From: a virus
Taxonomy: Duplodnaviria; Heunggongvirae; Uroviricota; Caudoviricetes
Strand: one strand, 5' to 3'
Length of the DNA stretch: 8,943 bases
IMG/VR virus record: IMGVR_UViG_2563366853_000003
Span: 1 to 8,943 of that record
Shown: positions 1,966-8,943 of the stretch, in pieces
Layout: the number at the start of each line of letters is the position of its first letter
Position numbering within the stretch: position 1 is the first letter of the stretch
Notes under the pieces: generated by a model
What the model saw: only the letters and a program-made list of their open reading frames with translations
The model's database searches: none
Told to the model about the DNA's origin: nothing
Made by a program: the position numbers and the translations under genes

Positions 1966-2019
1966 TGAAGAAATAACAAGCAAATGGCATCATTCCTGCT
2001 TTTACCAGGGGGAATTAAC

Positions 2020-2574
2020 ATGCTTATTGGCTATGTACGTGTATCAACAAATGACCAGAATACCGATCTACAACGTAATGCGCTGAACTGTGCAGGATGT
2101 GAGCTGATTTTTGAAGACAAGATAAGCGGTACAAAGTCCGACAGACCAGGACTGAAAAAGCTGCTCAGGACATTATCGGCAGGTGACACGCTGGTGGTCT
2201 GGAAACTGGACCGACTGGGGCGCAGTATGCGGCATCTTGTCGTGCTGGTGGAGGAGTTGCGCGAACGAGGCATCAACTTTCGTAGTCTGACGGATTCAAT
2301 TGATACCAGTACCCCAATGGGGCGCTTTTTCTTTCATGTGATGGGTGCCCTGGCTGAAATGGAGCGTGAACTGATTGTTGAACGAACAAAAGCTGGACTG
2401 GAAGCTGCTCGCGCACAGGGACGAATTGGTGGACGTCGCCCCAAACTTACACCAGAACAATGGGAGCAGGCCGGACGATTAATTGCAGCAGGAATTCCTC
2501 GCCAGAAGGTAGCGATCATCTATGATGTTGGTGTATCGACACTGTATAAGATGTTTCCGGTCGGAGATAAATGA
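2020..2574 (+). CDS. serine DNA invertase, Pin/Gin/Cin/Hin family
   Basis: ATG at 2020 with SD GGGGGAA at 2008-2014. Product MLIGYVRVSTNDQNTDLQRNAL...GDTLVVWKLDRLGRSM...GINFRSLTDSIDT...MGRFFFHVMGALAEMERELI...GRIGGRRPKL... matches the resolvase/invertase catalytic domain (active-site Ser in YVRVST) and C-terminal HTH. The ORF-track start at 1984 is upstream of the SD-linked ATG. Confidence 0.9.
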   Translation: MLIGYVRVSTNDQNTDLQRNALNCAGCELIFEDKISGTKSDRPGLKKLLRTLSAGDTLVVWKLDRLGRSMRHLVVLVEELRERGINFRSLTDSIDTSTPMGRFFFHVMGALAEMERELIVERTKAGLEAARAQGRIGGRRPKLTPEQWEQAGRLIAAGIPRQKVAIIYDVGVSTLYKMFPVGDK

Positions 2575-2632: not shown

Positions 2633-3502
<870 letters not shown>

Positions 3503-3597
3503 CTAATCCTTTGAATTTACATAGTAAAAAAAGATACTTTTCCTCATAGTGTGAGCTAATTTTATGTTTCGTTTGATGATCGGACCGGTCTCAAAAA

Positions 3598-3675
3598 CCG
3601 CAGGCACGTTGTATGCAAGAACGTGCTGTGGCTGGCTGGTGAACTTCCAATAGTGCGAATATTGAATGATGTCCA
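3598..3675. repeat. repeat copy B (34-bp core plus about 45-bp extension shared with copy C)
   Basis: Core CCGCAGGCACGTTGTATGCAAGAACGTGCTGTGG. The extension GCTGGCTGGTGAACTTCCAATAGTGCGAATATTGAATGATGTCCA aligns without gaps to 6301-6345 with about 7 mismatches. Confidence 0.5.
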
Positions 3676-3794
3676 GCCGTTACCGTTTTTACGTGTTTAT
3701 TAGTGAACAAACCACTCGTCAGCAGACTCCTAGGTATGAACAAAAGTTTTAGCTGAAACTCTATCTGTGGTGCGCGTAACAGAAGTGTAATAAA

Positions 3795-3813
3795 AGGCCC
3801 TAGAAAAGGGCCT
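3795..3813 (-). terminator. putative Rho-independent terminator (- strand)
   Basis: Perfect 7-bp stem AGGCCCT / AGGGCCT with a 5-nt loop, followed on the - strand by TTTATTA. Sits 15 bp downstream of the small ORF stop. Confidence 0.5.
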
Positions 3814-3827
3814 AAGATTAGCAAAGA

Positions 3828-3971
3828 TTATCCTCGATACTTAGAGGCAGGAATTTTGATAGGAAAGGCTGCCAAGCCTTTTTGACGAGCAAAGATCCGT
3901 TTACCTTTGACCGTAATAAAAGGACGGTAAATTGTGATGTATTCCTCAGATACAGCTTTTTCAATGGTCAT
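3828..3971 (-). CDS. small hypothetical protein (47 aa)
   Basis: ATG at 3971 to TAA at 3828-3830: MTIEKAVSEEYITIYRPFITVKGKRIFARQKGLAAFPIKIPASKYRG. Followed by the hairpin terminator. Below the ORF-track size cutoff; SD is weak (AGGT). Confidence 0.35.
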   Translation of the reverse strand: MTIEKAVSEEYITIYRPFITVKGKRIFARQKGLAAFPIKIPASKYRG

Positions 3972-3997
3972 ATCGTGTTACCTGTAAAGTTTCGCTG

Positions 3998-4025
3998 TTG
4001 ACAAAACCTAAGGTAAGCGTATACT
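3998..4025 (+). promoter_or_regulatory. sigma70-type promoter (-35 TTGACA, 16-bp spacer, -10 TATACT)
   Basis: Consensus -35 at 3998-4003 and near-consensus -10 at 4020-4025. No protein-coding ORF with a start follows; a terminator lies about 45 bp downstream. Confidence 0.5.
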
Positions 4026-4031
4026 CACAAC

Positions 4032-4094
4032 CGCCAAGTTTTTCGTATTTGCTTACGATAGGAGAAGCCAGCGACAGCGGTTCGCTGGCTTTTT
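4032..4094 (+). ncRNA. candidate small RNA (about 60-65 nt) between promoter and terminator, convergent with the ImmA-like gene 3' end
   Basis: Delimited by the 3998-4025 promoter and the 4067-4094 intrinsic terminator. No start codon in the interval. Confidence 0.3.
4067..4094 (+). terminator. Rho-independent terminator (+ strand)
   Basis: Stem GCCAGCGA / TCGCTGGC (8 bp) with a 7-nt loop, followed by TTTTT. Ends 2 bp before the ImmA-like stop codon on the opposite strand. Confidence 0.55.
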
Positions 4095-4096
4095 CG

Positions 4097-4630
4097 TTAT
4101 CTTTTTGCATTTTTTCTCATCCAAGTTTCAGCCGCTTGTTGACTGACACCAAATGTTTTGCTTATATCTTCAACAGTCATTGTGGGCAAAACTAGTCTTG
4201 AGTCAATTAAGAAGTGGCTTGCAAAAACATCTGCTTGCCATTCGCTGTCTTCATAGATTTTATGCCCTCCACTAGTCTTATTACGTGCATAGATACTTTG
4301 ATTGCGATGCATGACTAAATGACCAAGTTCATGCGCAACAGTGAATCTCGCATGGTTCTCACCATTGCACACTGCATCGTAAACAGATCGCTGTAAAACA
4401 ATTTTGTTCTTATCTGGATAAGTCACTGCATAGCGTTTGGGCAGTTCATGATCTTCAACAATTTCTAGCTCAATGCTTTCTGAGGCCATAAGACCTTCTA
4501 GTAATACATCCAGTCTCAGATATGTGTGATTTGATATCTGAAGAACGTCTCTCAGACGATGAGCGTATGATTTAATCATGCTGGTGCTGAGAGGTGAAAC
4601 GCGATGGCCAAGTTCTCGTTTCGCAATCAT
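4097..4630 (-). CDS. ImmA/IrrE-family Zn-metallopeptidase (HEXXH; COG2856-like)
   Basis: 177 aa with the HEXXH motif (HELGHLVMH) and downstream ...SEWQADVFASHFL.... Its ATG sits 3 nt after the stop of the upstream XRE gene, so the two are likely cotranscribed. Confidence 0.8.
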   Translation of the reverse strand: MIAKRELGHRVSPLSTSMIKSYAHRLRDVLQISNHTYLRLDVLLEGLMASESIELEIVEDHELPKRYAVTYPDKNKIVLQRSVYDAVCNGENHARFTVAHELGHLVMHRNQSIYARNKTSGGHKIYEDSEWQADVFASHFLIDSRLVLPTMTVEDISKTFGVSQQAAETWMRKNAKR

Positions 4631-4633
4631 TAT

Positions 4634-4984
4634 TCAGTCCTTTAACATTTTATTAAGCTTATCGAGTTGCTCTGGACTCAGGTCCTTAAATTTACGAGCA
4701 AAAACAAGCATTAGTTCTTTGTTCTGCTCATTTGCATCCGACATATCAACCTTAATGGACGGTTGAGAAATCTCTGCCTGTTTCTTGAGATTGATGATGT
4801 CTTGTCCGCTAAGCTCAAAAGTTGTTGCAATCGTATTTACTAATGAGTCCGGTATAGCTCTTTTGCCTAATTCAATGGCGGATAAGTAAGCCGAACTAAC
4901 GCCTAACAGATCAGCCATATTTTTGAGCACCATACCCCGGTCTATTCTCATTTTTCTGAGAGTCTTACCAAAGCTAGTTACCAT
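4634..4984 (-). CDS. XRE-family helix-turn-helix transcriptional regulator
   Basis: Start ATG at 4984 preceded by a perfect SD AGGAGG with a 6-nt spacer. HTH_XRE signature LRKMRIDRGMVLKNMADLLGVSSAYLSAIELGKR. The ORF-track start at 5011 is a GTG upstream of the SD. Confidence 0.8.
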   Translation of the reverse strand: MVTSFGKTLRKMRIDRGMVLKNMADLLGVSSAYLSAIELGKRAIPDSLVNTIATTFELSGQDIINLKKQAEISQPSIKVDMSDANEQNKELMLVFARKFKDLSPEQLDKLNKMLKD

Positions 4985-5010
4985 GTTGCGCCTCCTACAA
5001 TCCATGCTCA

Positions 5011-5039
5011 CTTATACTAAAAACCAAACTCAAGATCAA
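5011..5039 (-). promoter_or_regulatory. putative sigma70 promoter for the XRE/ImmA operon (-35 TTGATC, 17-bp spacer, -10 TATAAG)
   Basis: Hexamers read on the - strand, placed about 20-30 nt upstream of the XRE SD. Confidence 0.4.
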
Positions 5040-5266
5040 CAAAAATTGTAGAATTTTTTAATCTCAGCGTGTGATGACAATCTACATAAAATCATGAAAT
5101 GGTGCAAGGCGTAACTTAAAAAATACCATATGTAGTGTCAATTTTATGTGCTGTATGGATATATGGGGTTGGTAAACTTTTGCTCTTTTGTGCTCCTCAG
5201 CTATATGGTTGTTTGATTTTTGAACATCTTGTGGAACATAAATTGGGTTTATGCTTTTCCCTTTCG

Positions 5267-5294
5267 GTGACAACATGTTTATAGGATGTATAAT
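5267..5294 (+). promoter_or_regulatory. putative sigma70 promoter for the Bro-N gene (-35 GTGACA, 16-bp spacer, -10 TATAAT)
   Basis: Perfect -10 hexamer at 5289-5294, followed by SD AGGAGG at 5305-5310 and GTG start at 5318. Confidence 0.5.
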
Positions 5295-5317
5295 CCATAA
5301 AAAAAGGAGGGGATGGC

Positions 5318-6079
5318 GTGCAAAAGAATTTGTTACAATTATGCTACGAAGGAGAGTGTGGAGAAAATTATATCCGTAGCATGAATGAAAAAGGGCAGAT
5401 TTTTGTTTCACTTTCAGATGTGCTAAGAACGCTTTCTGCTGAGAACAGAAAACTGGATGGAAAGACTTCTCAAAGCTTGCTCACTGTAATAAGAGCGGTA
5501 ATAAAAACTTTAGATCCAGATGAGTTTAGGAATGTTTCTCTTGTCGTGGATGGTGAAACTATCTCTGAGGTATTTCTTACTGAACCAGGTCTATATAGAG
5601 TACTTGCTCAGGATACTACTGCTGCGGGGAAAAAATTCCAACGCTGGCTTTTTCATCAGGTCCTTCCGTCTATTCGTGAATTTGGTGTATATCCTCCGCC
5701 ACCTAAGCAAGAACGTTCAGAACTGAGTGCTTTTGCTAACAGTCTGCAGCAGACGGTTCAAGCATTGGTAATGGAAATAGAAAAACGTGAAGAGTTAGAA
5801 AGTAGAGTAAACCAAGTTGAACTAAAAGTTAACTCGTTAGAAAGTTTAAGAGATTTGTCTCAGTTCAGAAGTGTTCCTCAACGATTGATGGAGTTAGGTT
5901 TGGATACCTATTCGGTTGAGGAGCTTTGGCAATGGTGTGAAAAATTGCGTAGTGAACGTGGAGCAGAAAGAATTAAGTGCCCCTCCGGATTGAATATAAA
6001 TTCTTGCTATCCATTAGCTTTGGTTGATGAAGCTATCGCTATATACCAGAAAGTAGTTGAGGCAAGAACACGTCAGTGA
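5318..6079 (+). CDS. Bro-N domain protein (phage antirepressor-like) with a predicted coiled-coil C-terminal region
   Basis: GTG start 7 nt after SD AGGAGG. The N-terminal half (...IFVSLSDVLRTL...GLYRVLAQDTTAAGKKFQRWLFHQVLPSIREFGVY) matches the Bro-N signature; the C-terminal half is heptad-like (EIEKREELESRVNQVELKVNSLESL). Confidence 0.75.
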   Translation: MQKNLLQLCYEGECGENYIRSMNEKGQIFVSLSDVLRTLSAENRKLDGKTSQSLLTVIRAVIKTLDPDEFRNVSLVVDGETISEVFLTEPGLYRVLAQDTTAAGKKFQRWLFHQVLPSIREFGVYPPPPKQERSELSAFANSLQQTVQALVMEIEKREELESRVNQVELKVNSLESLRDLSQFRSVPQRLMELGLDTYSVEELWQWCEKLRSERGAERIKCPSGLNINSCYPLALVDEAIAIYQKVVEARTRQ

Positions 6080-6088
6080 GCTTGAGGG

Positions 6089-6118
6089 AAAAAAAAGCCC
6101 GCATAAGCGGGCTTTTTT
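6089..6118 (+). terminator. strong Rho-independent terminator (bidirectional shape)
   Basis: AAAAAAAA-GCCCGC-ATAA-GCGGGC-TTTTTT, starting 10 bp after the Bro-N stop. Confidence 0.8.
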
Positions 6119-6243
6119 ATCACTCGGGAGCTGCGGCTCCTTTGCGTATCCTTTTTTGTCTCCTCACCGTCTGGTCGGTGTCCTGCTGAGACTGCTAACA
6201 TCCTGTTTTTGTTGGTGTTGTCCTTACACCGTCCAATCATGAT

Positions 6244-6271
6244 TGGTGGAGCTGGCGGGAGTTGAACCCGC
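6244..6271 (-). other. ssrA (tmRNA) 3'-end fragment, att-site-like scar
   Basis: Reverse complement reads GCGGGTTCAACTCCCGCCAGCTCCACCA (T-arm, acceptor 3' strand, CCA), which I recall as the terminal 28 nt of enterobacterial tmRNA. No upstream tmRNA body is present. Confidence 0.55.
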
Positions 6272-6345
6272 TGACACGTCGTATGCAAGAACTTGCTGCG
6301 GCTGGATGGTGGACTTTCGATAGTGCGAGTATTGAATGATTTCCA
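6268..6345. repeat. repeat copy C (34-bp core plus about 45-bp extension), directly abutting the ssrA fragment
   Basis: Core CCGCTGACACGTCGTATGCAAGAACTTGCTGCGG, then GCTGGATGGTGGACTTTCGATAGTGCGAGTATTGAATGATTTCCA. Overlaps the ssrA fragment by 4 nt. Confidence 0.5.
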
Positions 6346-6764
6346 TCTATTATAGATTTTACCGTATTTCGGCATGAATGAAACTGAATATCCTCCCACC
6401 GACCCTCCATGACTTTACACCACTGTCTCTGGGGCTGCTATGTGCCAAAAGCGGACATAACGACACGTTAGTTAGAAATCTCAAGACCAATTAGGTTGGA
6501 TACTTACATGTATACTATTGCCTAACGATACTACCCTATCAACCTCATGGTTTATAGGCGGGGGTGAGAGCCAATCGAACGCTATCGTACGTTTTTATGC
6601 TGTCTACCCTAGACCCCAAGTAGACATGAATCTTACCTGATTTCCATACGAGGGCGACGTTGATCATCCAGCTTTAGTGCGAGCACTGAACTTAACATTT
6701 ACCAGCAATAGTGATATTTTCTACAAAGAAAAATATATGGAATAACGTCATCGCGGGTACAAAA

Positions 6765-7757
6765 ATGACTATAAAAAAAACATATGTAACACCAACAGAA
6801 ATAGTGAAATATTTTTATGACAAACCGGAAAACGATAACGTAAAAGAGAGAAAAACAATTGAGAGCCTGACCCGTCTCAAACCTGAGTGGGAAAATACTC
6901 TCGATATGATGAAGTTAATACGCAATTGTGAAAAGCTAGCAACTGAAGGTATTTTAATGGAATTGTCTTCAGGACATACTCTTTTTGACCGTTGCTATTT
7001 CGCACCGAATTTCAATGAATCAGATGCGAAATATGGAAAGTATGATTTTATAGCTGATGGATTTGAGTCAATCATAGACCGCCTTAGTCCTTCCGTTTTA
7101 CCTGTTGTTGTTGAAAAAAGTGATGGTTCACATGATCTTGGTACTAGTTTTATTGTTGGGAATAACCACACGATATTTACAGCCAGACATGTTATTGAAG
7201 ACATGAAGAGTATCAGGATACTTAGAGCTGGTGGTGAGGCTTTACCAATACATAAAATCTTTGTATCTAACGATGAACGTATTGATATCGCTTTAGTTTT
7301 CACAACCATTCCGAATGAAGATAATATTCAACCACTTAAGGTCTCAACCAAAGCCTCGGTACTGGATGAAATTTTATCAATAGGATTTCCACCCATTCCA
7401 GGATTTGATGCATTAAAGTTATATGACGTTTCGCATATAAATTCGTTTGTCCGACTGTCAAAGGGGCGAATTGTTGGTTCTGGTCACTCTTACTTAGATT
7501 CACAAGACTTTTTATTATTCAATGCTAGGGTTAAGGGGGGGAATAGCGGTGGCCCTATAATTAACAAATACGGCCTTGTTGTTGGTATGCTTGTACAAAT
7601 ACCAATATCATCTGAGGACAGTTCAAAGATTGATAACCTTGGATATGGTATAGCTGTAACAGGAAAAAGCCTGCTGGATGCCATTACATTTACAGAAAAT
7701 GGCCGCGAATTAACACTCACCGACCGAGGAAATGGAGAATATTCAACTCTAGCATAA
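6765..7757 (+). CDS. trypsin-like (chymotrypsin-fold) serine protease with N-terminal domain of unknown function; no signal peptide
   Basis: Catalytic triad in order: His in FTARHVIED, Asp in DIALV, Ser in GGNSGGPI. The first ~115 aa have no recognisable motif and no hydrophobic leader. Start is uncertain: ATG 6765 chosen, GTG 6711 is the alternative; both have a weak SD. Confidence 0.7.
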   Translation: MTIKKTYVTPTEIVKYFYDKPENDNVKERKTIESLTRLKPEWENTLDMMKLIRNCEKLATEGILMELSSGHTLFDRCYFAPNFNESDAKYGKYDFIADGFESIIDRLSPSVLPVVVEKSDGSHDLGTSFIVGNNHTIFTARHVIEDMKSIRILRAGGEALPIHKIFVSNDERIDIALVFTTIPNEDNIQPLKVSTKASVLDEILSIGFPPIPGFDALKLYDVSHINSFVRLSKGRIVGSGHSYLDSQDFLLFNARVKGGNSGGPIINKYGLVVGMLVQIPISSEDSSKIDNLGYGIAVTGKSLLDAITFTENGRELTLTDRGNGEYSTLA

Positions 7758-8604: not shown

Positions 8605-8943
8605 GTGAAACTCAATGCCCGTCAAATAGACACTGCCAAGCCAAAAGAGAAGGCTTACAAGTTGGCTGATGGTGGTGGTCTGTACCTCCTGGTAAAACCT
8701 GGTGGAGGAGAATATTGGCGTCTCAAGTATCGTGTAGCTGGTAAAGAGAAGCTGTTAGCACTAGGTGTGTATCCTGAGGTCACCTTAGCTGATGCTCCTG
8801 CAAAACTTGAAGAAGCTAAAAGAGGTATCTCTGGGGGAATCGATCTGATGGAAGTGAAGCGAGAGGAAAAGATTGCCCGGGAAACGCAGTTAAACAACAC
8901 CTTCAAAGATATTGCCCTTGAGTGGCACAGTAACAAATTATAA
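8605..8943 (+). CDS. P4-type tyrosine integrase, N-terminal arm-binding domain only (112 aa; likely truncated or pseudogene)
   Basis: MKLNARQIDTAKPKEKAYKLADGGGLYLLVKPGGGEYWRLKYRVAGKEKLLALGVYPEVTLADA... is the characteristic N-terminus of P4-like integrases. In-frame TAA at 8941-8943 cuts the protein before the catalytic domain. The gene lies immediately downstream of the tRNA fragment. Confidence 0.75.
   Translation: MKLNARQIDTAKPKEKAYKLADGGGLYLLVKPGGGEYWRLKYRVAGKEKLLALGVYPEVTLADAPAKLEEAKRGISGGIDLMEVKREEKIARETQLNNTFKDIALEWHSNKL

Follow-up and report, generated by a model that had tools for sequence, protein, structure and literature searches.

A candidate XRE–ImmA–antisense RNA–miniprotein cassette of temperate phages at the accessory end of an Escherichia coli prophage

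The window analysed here, an 8,943-nucleotide (nt) stretch of phage DNA (Caudoviricetes; IMG/VR record IMGVR_UViG_2563366853_000003), represents the accessory end of a prophage of E. coli. It carries a gene for an XRE-family helix-turn-helix (HTH) repressor followed by a gene for an ImmA/IrrE-type zinc peptidase and, divergent from this pair, a gene for a Bro-N family protein, which a preliminary description of the same DNA had taken to be controlled by the pair. Our analysis points to a different target. Downstream of ImmA and on the same strand lies a gene for a miniprotein of 47 amino acids (aa), orf47, and the spacer between the two appears to encode a cis-antisense small RNA (sRNA); this unit is a likelier regulated output than Bro-N. 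The reading we favour, to which we give about an even chance of being correct, is that of an autorepressed, protease-released operon with the miniprotein as its output, gated by the antisense RNA, and with Bro-N independent of it. We propose more tentatively, since the balance is somewhat against it, that XRE, ImmA, a cis-antisense sRNA and a basic β-protein of ~45 aa form an undescribed cassette of temperate phages across phyla, in which a protease-cleavable repressor and an antisense RNA gate an effector of abortive infection or inter-phage warfare.

The XRE and peptidase genes are tightly coupled, as had been described: the XRE stop codon (TGA, 4634–4636) and the ImmA start codon (ATG, 4628–4630) are 3 nt apart, and the products match HTH families and Peptidase_M78, respectively. 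The peptidase consists of a single domain with a short C-terminal helical tail. H100, E101 and H104 of its HELGH motif, E127 and a YEDSEWQAD block are invariant in 20 diverse homologues, and the zincin active site (HEXXH and a downstream Glu) is, as judged from sequence, intact. Among PADLOC models, the peptidase matches capP (5e-15) and the repressor matches capH (1.2e-10) as well as HTH_VI; both proteins also match many RmrA models, each over the corresponding part, and the NCBIfam ‘spr1629 family repressor/antitoxin’. The closest solved sequence to the peptidase is that of CapP (7t5t, E=2e-4), over the catalytic core only, and the solved structures matched by the XRE sequence include C.BclI, ClgR, DdrO and CapH. 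The XRE frame has a clear coding signature, with third codon positions 44–56% identical compared with 78–97% at positions 1 and 2. Its start is the ATG at 4984 behind a Shine–Dalgarno (SD) sequence, AGGAGG, at 4991–4996, in agreement with the RefSeq annotation, and not the GTG at 5011; the divergent region thus spans 333 bp (4985–5317) instead of 230 bp. Among the matches listed, a full-length XRE homologue lies directly upstream of the peptidase in 22 of 22 loci, 10 of them retrieved via protein look-up and 12 being the usable ones from a genome scan in which most listed matches were remote M78 proteins; these 12 are from Clostridia, Synergistota, Pseudomonas, Victivallales, Spirochaetes and a Rickettsiales metagenome-assembled genome (MAG). 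The same order is found in at least 73 of 80 viral contigs. The two genes thus do co-occur across homologous loci, and their distribution supports a genuine co-inherited pair of the ImmR/ImmA, DdrO/IrrE and CapH/CapP class; a likeness to ImmR–ImmA and CapH–CapP had already been noted.

The operon has its own putative promoter and operator. In a four-way alignment of the copies from E. coli, the cultured lambdoid phage LLS, Salmonella and Serratia, the –35 element is kept as TTGAT or TTGAA, and the predicted leader is ~20 nt long and includes the AGGAGG. In the same alignment, the arms of the palindrome O1 (consensus TTCWACA-N5-TGTTGAW) are conserved and its spacer is variable; the Serratia site is a perfect palindrome (TTCAACA-N5-TGTTGAA), and nowhere else in the window is this consensus matched with one mismatch or none. 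In about 25 distant loci of the family, the XRE gene is likewise preceded by TCAAC/TCTAC inverted repeats. Together, the conservation of the O1 arms, the overlap of O1 with the –35 element and the distant repeats make autorepression of XRE at this predicted operator the likeliest reading. A distal block at 5122–5140, centred 85 bp from the O1 centre, is conserved in the same four copies and, being present in Serratia, where Bro-N is missing, it belongs to the XRE cassette. Two more short blocks on the XRE strand upstream of its promoter, 5063–5073 (CACACGYTGAG) and 5103–5109 (CATTGCA), are likewise conserved in the four copies and may represent an UP element or the binding site of another factor. 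Two other candidate elements were rejected. A distal XRE-strand promoter, TTGACA-17-TAAGTT (5142 to 5114), is by eye unconserved in Salmonella, LLS and Serratia, and a LexA box, CTGTATGGATATATGG (5151–5166), was discarded by eye only, no matrix scan having been made, as TGG replaces the essential CAG and the site is unconserved.

ATATGG/CCATAT motifs in the divergent region had been read as possible operator half-sites. Three copies do occur within 83 bp, at 5126–5131 (+), 5161–5166 (−) and 5203–5208 (−), and this hexamer reaches three copies in 7 of 2000 shuffles. However, in so AT-rich a region some hexamer or other reaches three copies in 93% of shuffles, which places a half-site role no higher than chance. 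The first copy alone falls within a conserved block; the other two are unconserved in phage LLS.

The miniprotein gene shows the same signature of protein coding as XRE, with the identity at third codon positions (0.45–0.49) well below that at positions 1 and 2 (0.83–0.89). In 84 of the 105 family loci, from several phyla, searches with tblastn and iterated hidden Markov models recovered homologues of 38–60 aa that are encoded 3′ of ImmA in the same orientation; several of the loci without a match end at a contig edge. In the cultured Burkholderia phage vB_SBP36, the homologue is an annotated 43-aa open reading frame (ORF). Among 1.8 billion cluster representatives, 29 matches at E<=1e-3 were found, 27 of which are small proteins, the two long ones (P0140 and P0148) being dismissed as spurious, repeat or Ig-domain proteins. 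All homologues are named ‘hypothetical protein’, and the miniprotein has no match in Pfam, NCBIfam, PHROG, PADLOC, PDB or the named entries of BFVD; a search of PDB sequences with the miniprotein profile returned noise only. The AlphaFold2 (AF2) model, with a mean confidence (pLDDT) of 86, displays a four-stranded β unit and a short helix, and the protein is basic, β-rich and without a hydrophobic helix. The gene is followed by the terminator of the operon, called as a terminator-like site, whose hairpin and T-run are found at the same place in LLS, Salmonella and Serratia, although the sequence differs.

Between ImmA and the miniprotein gene there is, in every lineage, a spacer of 100–200 nt. 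In the window it is annotated as a gene for a hypothetical protein, orf49, which by the pattern of its conservation probably does not code for protein. Orf49 is frameshifted in phage LLS, contains indels in Serratia and matches nothing in Pfam, PHROG or PADLOC; its identity to LLS by codon position is 0.79/0.83/0.90, and the third position is the most conserved one in all three comparisons, unlike in true coding sequences. The spacer as a whole is 84–94% identical to those of LLS and Salmonella, compared with 72–80% for the flanking genes, with no third-position relaxation, and 73% identical to that of Serratia, compared with 66–72% for the genes. On the strand opposite to the operon it contains a near-consensus promoter, the hexamers of which do not vary among the copies from E. 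coli, LLS, Salmonella, Serratia and Edwardsiella, in operons 66–80% divergent. This promoter is followed by a terminator hairpin (4061–4095, or 4061–4105 with its U tail; fold −26.8 kcal/mol, z=−4.2), which was called as a terminator-like site. The consensus structure of the sRNA, derived from seven enterobacterial copies, has an invariant 5′ ACCGCCAAGU, invariant stems and a variable loop. Conservation without codon periodicity, combined with the antisense promoter and terminator, suggests that orf49 is a misannotated gene of a ~70-nt cis-antisense RNA. In Rfam (E<=0.1), the sRNA region has no match, the window as a whole giving only sub-threshold, terminator-driven matches and a 17-nt tmRNA T-arm. 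The arrangement recurs in unrelated spacers, including those of Rheinheimera, Clostridia and the Rickettsiales MAG, in which near-consensus antisense promoters are followed by terminators abutting the ImmA stop codon. Among 66 unique spacers, a best promoter score of >=9 was obtained in 43 on the antisense and in 5 on the sense strand, and one of >=10 in 23 and 3, respectively; a downstream hairpin with a T-run is present in 45.

The Bro-N gene is, in turn, divergent from the pair and equipped with a near-consensus promoter, an AGGAGG SD sequence (5305–5310, 7 nt 5′ of the GTG start) and a strong terminator, all as had been described. Its product is composed of a Bro-N domain (residues ~1–122; PF02498, E=2.4e-7, 31.7 bits against a cut-off of 25.6 bits), a long coiled coil (135–175) and a small C-terminal α/β domain (183–252). 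It matches PHROG ‘anti-repressor Ant’ families and has no match in PADLOC; in Pfam, Bro-N is the only match, and neither an ANT (PF03374) nor a KilA-C domain is found at the C-terminus, PF03374 being carried only by very distant relatives (P0059–P0067). A Foldseek search of the AF2 model (pLDDT 83) against PDB gave nothing at E<=0.001 and only weak, winged-helix-like matches. Full-length homologues of ~250 aa share 33–91% identity with Bro-N, and a homologue is usually the last gene before the attachment site. Outside the block shared by E. coli, Salmonella, Citrobacter and LLS, six of the seven contexts inspected lack XRE/ImmA. No XRE/ImmA is found near the homologues of an enterobacterial prophage at icd (80% identity), Klebsiella oxytoca (79%), where SRAP and ssrA/smpB are the neighbours, Pantoea and Serratia fonticola (70%), Yersinia (54%), where RhuM is adjacent, Methylovulum (39%), where the gene and an AAA_21 ATPase lie between glyQ and glyS, and a metagenomic contig (33%). 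In Klebsiella, Pantoea and Serratia, the homologues are preceded by the same promoter, cATGACA-N17-GGTATAAT. Upstream homology among Bro-N loci begins only at this promoter and ends just upstream of it, which argues that Bro-N is an autonomous cassette with its own strong promoter; we regard it as a separate passenger gene that is probably expressed constitutively.

Conversely, XRE–ImmA is found without Bro-N in about 100 loci from many phyla. XRE proteins of 116–117 aa are encoded directly upstream of ImmA homologues, with no Bro-N, in Edwardsiella (73%), in a lambdoid prophage of Serratia between the replication genes and the Q/lysis region (72%), in Providencia next to Q (57%) and in a Mu-like prophage of Rheinheimera between mor and the lysis genes (46%). 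The 12 loci from the genome scan and at least 73 of the 80 viral contigs show this arrangement as well. The three genes occur together only in the sublineage of E. coli, Salmonella, Citrobacter and LLS. Moreover, a scan of the window with the O1 consensus found no O1-like palindrome closer than 180 bp to the Bro-N promoter, inspection of the alignment by eye gave no conserved operator in its spacer, and the DNA between the XRE and Bro-N promoters varies among E. coli, LLS and Salmonella.

Some neighbours of these genes deserve mention. The Methylovulum Bro-N homologue, an AAA_15/AAA_21 ATPase gene and a small ORF make up a three-gene insertion between glyQ and glyS, which hints that the Bro-N family can join ATPase-containing (PARIS/Gabija-like) modules. 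A RhuM-family gene adjoins Bro-N homologues in divergent orientation in Yersinia and convergently in Serratia fonticola; this recurrent neighbour might be a real partner of Bro-N. Pairs of genes with a SocA_Panacea (PanA antitoxin-like) domain adjoin XRE–ImmA–miniprotein in Rheinheimera and lie near the Bro-N gene in Pantoea. Both cassettes are found in the same hotspots as toxin–antitoxin (TA) and defence modules.

Table 1. Predicted genes, RNAs and regulatory elements of the two cassettes (window coordinates)
Feature	Position	Strand	Description
Operon terminator	3786-3813	−	Rho-independent terminator of the XRE-ImmA-miniprotein operon; −13.9 kcal/mol, z=−3.6
orf47	3828-3971	−	Miniprotein, 47 aa, basic; consensus IYRPYITvKGKRIYA..yGlKAF
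orf49	3961-4110	−	Annotated hypothetical protein
Antisense sRNA promoter	3998-4025	+	TTGACA-16-TATACT; 11/12 consensus matches
Antisense sRNA (predicted)	4032-4105	+	~70 nt; antisense to the 3′ end of ImmA and to the spacer before orf47
ImmA	4097-4630	−	ImmA/IrrE-type M78 zinc peptidase, 177 aa; PF06114 Peptidase_M78, E=2.8e-11
XRE	4634-4984	−	XRE-family HTH repressor, 116 aa; Pfam HTH_19/HTH_31/HTH_3
XRE promoter, –10	5011-5016	−	TATAAG; GTATAA invariant in four-way alignment
XRE promoter, –35	5034-5039	−	TTGATC; 17 nt from –10
Operator O1 (predicted)	5035-5053		19-bp palindrome TTCTACA-N5-TGTTGAT; right arm overlaps XRE –35
Distal conserved block	5122-5140		ACAnCAACATATRG on the XRE strand; contains the first CCATAT motif
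Bro-N promoter	5267-5294	+	GTGACA-16-TATAAT; 11/12 consensus matches
Bro-N	5318-6079	+	Bro-N family protein, 253 aa; PF02498
Bidirectional terminator	6088-6121		3′ of Bro-N; hairpin −20.2 kcal/mol, z=−4.1; part of the arm beside the ssrA-type core

We infer the function of the cassette as a whole from these elements. In the reading we favour, the prophage end would carry two independent accessory cassettes back to back. The first (3786–5140, minus strand) would be a self-contained, four-part switch made of XRE, ImmA, the antisense RNA and the miniprotein. The conserved operator suggests that an XRE dimer bound to O1 over its own –35 element would keep the operon nearly silent, and homology to ImmR/ImmA, DdrO/IrrE and CapH/CapP suggests that a signal (DNA damage, single-stranded DNA or an infecting phage being the likeliest) would lead the peptidase to cleave XRE and thereby derepress the operon. 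Its output, judging from the architecture, would be the 47-aa basic β-protein encoded at the 3′ end. The predicted antisense RNA (~70 nt), made constitutively, would pair with the ImmA–miniprotein spacer, and its terminator hairpin would lie at the ImmA stop codon. Pairing and hairpin may together set a threshold on the output, such that the miniprotein would be made only upon a strong burst of operon transcription. As for the miniprotein itself, our guess is a nucleic-acid-binding, toxin-like effector that would stop either the cell or an invading phage, much as in abortive infection or RosmerTA. The second cassette (5250–6121, plus strand) would consist of Bro-N with its own unregulated, near-consensus promoter, expressed in the lysogen independently of the first.

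Several observations weigh against this reading. The GAF/sensor domain present in CapP and IrrE is missing from the peptidase. Unlike typical type I toxins, the miniprotein is not hydrophobic, and its fold resembles no recognisable relative, so that a toxin role is a guess. In about one third of the spacers, the signal of the antisense promoter is weak or absent, and covariation in the sRNA is almost nil because the alignable copies are close relatives. Finally, XRE–ImmA and Bro-N move together through P2-like, e14-like and lambdoid backbones, which leaves room for some functional tie between them.

Such a tie is at the centre of the explanation in which XRE represses the divergent Bro-N promoter and ImmA, by cleaving XRE upon DNA damage, frees Bro-N as an antirepressor or defence effector in the manner of CapH/CapP or of P22 mnt/ant. 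The layout of CapH/CapP is indeed alike, with the regulator pair upstream of the cargo and on the opposite strand (10.1101/2022.04.27.489752), and Xre–Bro pairs have been noted as TA-like or regulatory (PMC2701414; PMC11638225). In addition, E. coli, Salmonella and Citrobacter phages of the e14-like, P2-like and lambdoid types, and phage LLS, retain the XRE–ImmA…Bro-N block of ~2.3 kb unbroken, and the PHROG matches of Bro-N to Ant fit such a role. However, Bro-N homologues of 54–80% identity keep the same promoter with no XRE/ImmA nearby, Bro-N is never adjacent to XRE–ImmA homologues of <=72% identity, and the near-consensus Bro-N promoter, set apart from XRE by variable DNA, displays neither an O1-like palindrome within 180 bp nor, by eye, a conserved operator in its spacer. 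We therefore regard this explanation as decidedly improbable. The preliminary description was thus right about the pair, but its target is wrong or at least unsupported: each partner occurs without the other, the operator is found only at the XRE promoter, and the proposed half-sites are not significant.

The same switch could instead have as its output a trans-acting antirepressor or regulator, the cassette being a portable, immI-like unit that couples damage or infection to induction of the resident or a competing prophage. Repressor gene(s), an intercistronic antisense RNA and a small effector, in this order, constitute the architecture of P22 immI (arc-sar-ant) and P1 c4/ant, which the gene order of the cassette would resemble by analogy. 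The module is found in many types of temperate phages, often by integration or regulatory regions: next to int in Burkholderia phage vB_SBP36, in the mor–lysis gap of a Mu-like prophage, and in the replication–Q/lysis region of lambdoid prophages or beside their Q antiterminator gene. A basic, β-rich miniprotein would, as modelled, also be compatible with protein or DNA binding. Set against these points, the miniprotein has no similarity to any known antirepressor, the carrier phages already own CI/Cro switches, and the module adjoins known defence genes and lies in defence hotspots; on balance, we consider this possibility unlikely. The plainest view, that XRE and ImmA are an ordinary Xre–COG2856 TA or addiction pair (in which the peptidase would be the toxin or XRE the antitoxin) and that the small ORF and antisense signals are incidental, the locus comprising three adjacent unrelated morons, appears very improbable. 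In its favour, a TA-like nature has been predicted for Xre–COG2856 pairs (PMC2701414), a ZnMP/Xre pair of Brucella has been investigated as a TA system (PMC10538038), and the PADLOC candidate system PDC-M69 (HTH + M78) is weakly matched (4e-6 and 2e-5). However, 84 of 105 loci across phyla have the miniprotein gene, with its coding signature, at a constant distance and before a shared terminator, which is not incidental, and nucleotide constraint is stronger on the spacer than on the genes.

The cassette can be compared with several characterized systems, of which ImmR/ImmA of ICEBs1 from Bacillus subtilis and the phage cI-like/ImmA-like pairs are the best fit to the peptidase in size and domain content. 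In both cases, an XRE-HTH gene is followed in one operon, here predicted to be autoregulated as well, by the gene of a ~170-aa, single-domain COG2856/M78 peptidase with HEXXH and Glu. By contrast, the pair described here is located outside the region controlling integration and excision or lysis and lysogeny, in the accessory region past the tail-fibre and invertase genes, and LLS and P2-like prophages carry separate CI/Cro or C repressors. The downstream gene, moreover, encodes a 47-aa protein and not int, with a predicted antisense RNA unit in between. The pair also belongs to the same superfamily as CapH/CapP, is likewise divergent from a neighbour and would be expected to be derepressed upon damage. 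Nevertheless, the HTH–GAF C-terminal part of CapP is absent (177 aa compared with 240–290), the capP profile being matched only at positions 31–146 of 242 and 7t5t (291 aa) being aligned over residues 84–144 only. About one third of CapPs have a cysteine-switch loop between HEXXH and the third ligand (10.1101/2022.04.27.489752), whereas no Cys is found between H104 and E127 in the 20 aligned homologues, and such a loop is therefore lacking. Unlike in CapH/CapP, the divergent neighbour Bro-N is not a conserved partner, lacks an O1-like site and has no PADLOC match, and the conserved cargo lies in cis, downstream in the same operon.

A small, family-variable partner beside HTH and M78 functions on phages and prophages is also typical of RosmerTA, in which the antitoxin is a fused HTH–M78 protein paired with variable toxins (PMC10440598). 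Here, unlike in the RosmerTA toxin RmrT and antitoxin RmrA, the HTH and the protease are separate proteins, the partner is a basic β-protein of 38–60 aa without a match to PADLOC toxin models, and there is a predicted antisense RNA layer. In P22 immI, P1 c4/ant, symE/symR and tisB/istR-1, a stress- or repressor-controlled operon has its small effector held down by a short antisense RNA that is expressed from its own strong promoter inside or beside the intercistronic region. The cassette has no sequence relationship to any of them, and its gate would be a protease-cleavable XRE and not Arc/Mnt or LexA. Furthermore, in contrast to immI and the type I modules, the predicted RNA would pair upstream of the ribosome-binding site of the effector and not over it, and the effector is not a small, hydrophobic, membrane-active peptide as in type I TA. 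The cassette would thus be a hybrid of RosmerTA/CapHP-type and type I-TA/immI-type control. It is found in Proteobacteria, Clostridia, Synergistota, Spirochaetes and a Rickettsiales MAG, and no paper describing an XRE–ImmA–miniprotein cassette was found in open-access texts, which is not proof of absence. Xre–COG2856 pairs were predicted by Makarova et al. (PMC2701414) to regulate ‘a still unknown third component’; in this subfamily, that role could be filled by the miniprotein and the RNA. Bro-N, for its part, shares with Bro-N/Ant antirepressors and Bro–Xre pairs the N-terminal Bro-N domain, the PHROG ‘Ant’ match and an adjacent XRE gene (PMC2701414, PMC11638225), but a coiled coil and a small domain take the place of ANT/KilA-C, and the gene usually stands alone as the last one before the attachment site.

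The stretch 3900–6300 is 100% identical to several E. coli chromosomes and is present at >=80% coverage in 34 of 5426 complete genomes. In strain A22, this stretch lies at the right end of a prophage whose head genes are of HK97 type and whose tail genes are of Mu type, and which also has an invertible tail-fibre segment and pinE. Past pinE, the gene order is a GIY-YIG PD-T4-3 gene, two tiny annotated ORFs, ImmA, XRE and Bro-N, and beyond Bro-N there is an S1 peptidase gene, then a truncated P4-type integrase and the vat island. In phage LLS, the whole cassette is located between the tail-fibre invertase and attP, with the same layout of Bro-N gene and attP (genes 27–30 are not discussed in the paper on this phage, PMC12315714), which identifies the setting as a moron/defence hotspot at a prophage end. 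In Salmonella, the cassette is found 3′ of the tail-fibre genes of P2-like prophages, apparently at the fun locus, the second P2 defence hotspot (PMC9519451). In the window, the XRE–ImmA cassette adjoins PD-T4-3.

That gene (2633–3457, minus strand; LEM-3-like) matches the PADLOC single-gene anti-phage system PD-T4-3 over its full length (464 bits) as well as phrog_5356, and it is also found at the end of an ssrA-integrated lambdoid prophage, beside a type II restriction–modification system. On the other side of the cassettes, 6089–6271 comprises the Bro-N terminator, an arm of ~150 bp and the last 28 nt of ssrA/tmRNA (6243–6271, minus strand). The 180 bp 3′ of Bro-N (6091–6271) match a phage arm with the 28-nt ssrA 3′ core. 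In most E. coli genomes, a match to this stretch is found at the 3′ end of ssrA and in the sequence beside it; a scan of the window for tRNA and tmRNA genes found none, this core being the only tRNA-like end. These elements form the att-type junction of a phage integrating at ssrA, like those of phage LLS and of the ssrA-integrated lambdoid prophage mentioned above. Its location in the thrW/vat region and not at ssrA implies recombination between prophages. A hairpin-forming sequence, AAACCGCAGGCACGTYGTATGCAAGAACGTGCTGYGG..., occurs in three direct copies, 82–89% identical (2574–2610, 3595–3692 and 6265–6362), exactly at the joints between pinE, the PD-T4-3 cassette, the XRE–ImmA–Bro-N block and the S1 peptidase gene. 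Copies are present, unannotated, in many E. coli genomes, and they may be shared terminators that act as recombination joints for the swapping of morons, or remnants of attP arms.

Other genes of the window lie farther away. The S1/trypsin-like serine peptidase (6711–7757, plus strand; phrog_18002, 776 bits) has an N-terminal region with a faint match to CTD12 of ABC-3C systems, and its protease domain matches the PADLOC models RT-Protease (type XI), LmuA, HamA and PDC-M35A; it is possibly a stand-alone defence or effector gene. Inverted repeats of 20 nt at 75–94 and 1939–1958 (95% complementary), the sequence of which matches the IR-L annotated in phage LLS, flank opposed genes for tail-fibre tip and assembly, and this segment adjoins a PinE/Fin-type serine invertase gene (1984–2574, plus strand). 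The repeats, the tail-fibre genes and the invertase constitute a host-range switching segment. At the other end of the window, 8605–8943 (plus strand) encodes the N-terminal Arm-DNA-binding domain of a P4-type integrase. In A22 the integrase gene is truncated, a MarR gene and the vat autotransporter island coming next.

Few unexplained gene pairs of phages and defence islands are as common as those of XRE and M78 peptidase. Our results indicate that one large subfamily, for which ~100 loci of cultured phages, prophages and viral contigs were sampled here, encodes its probable output in cis, as a conserved miniprotein that annotation pipelines have missed or labelled ‘hypothetical’. They also advise caution before divergent neighbours in prophage moron hotspots are called regulatory pairs. 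If the proposed reading is true, the annotation of orf49 would be corrected, a new miniprotein family would be added to the repertoire of phage defence and counter-defence, and the cassette would provide a compact, testable model of how a protease-released repressor and an antisense RNA are layered to silence a phage-borne effector.

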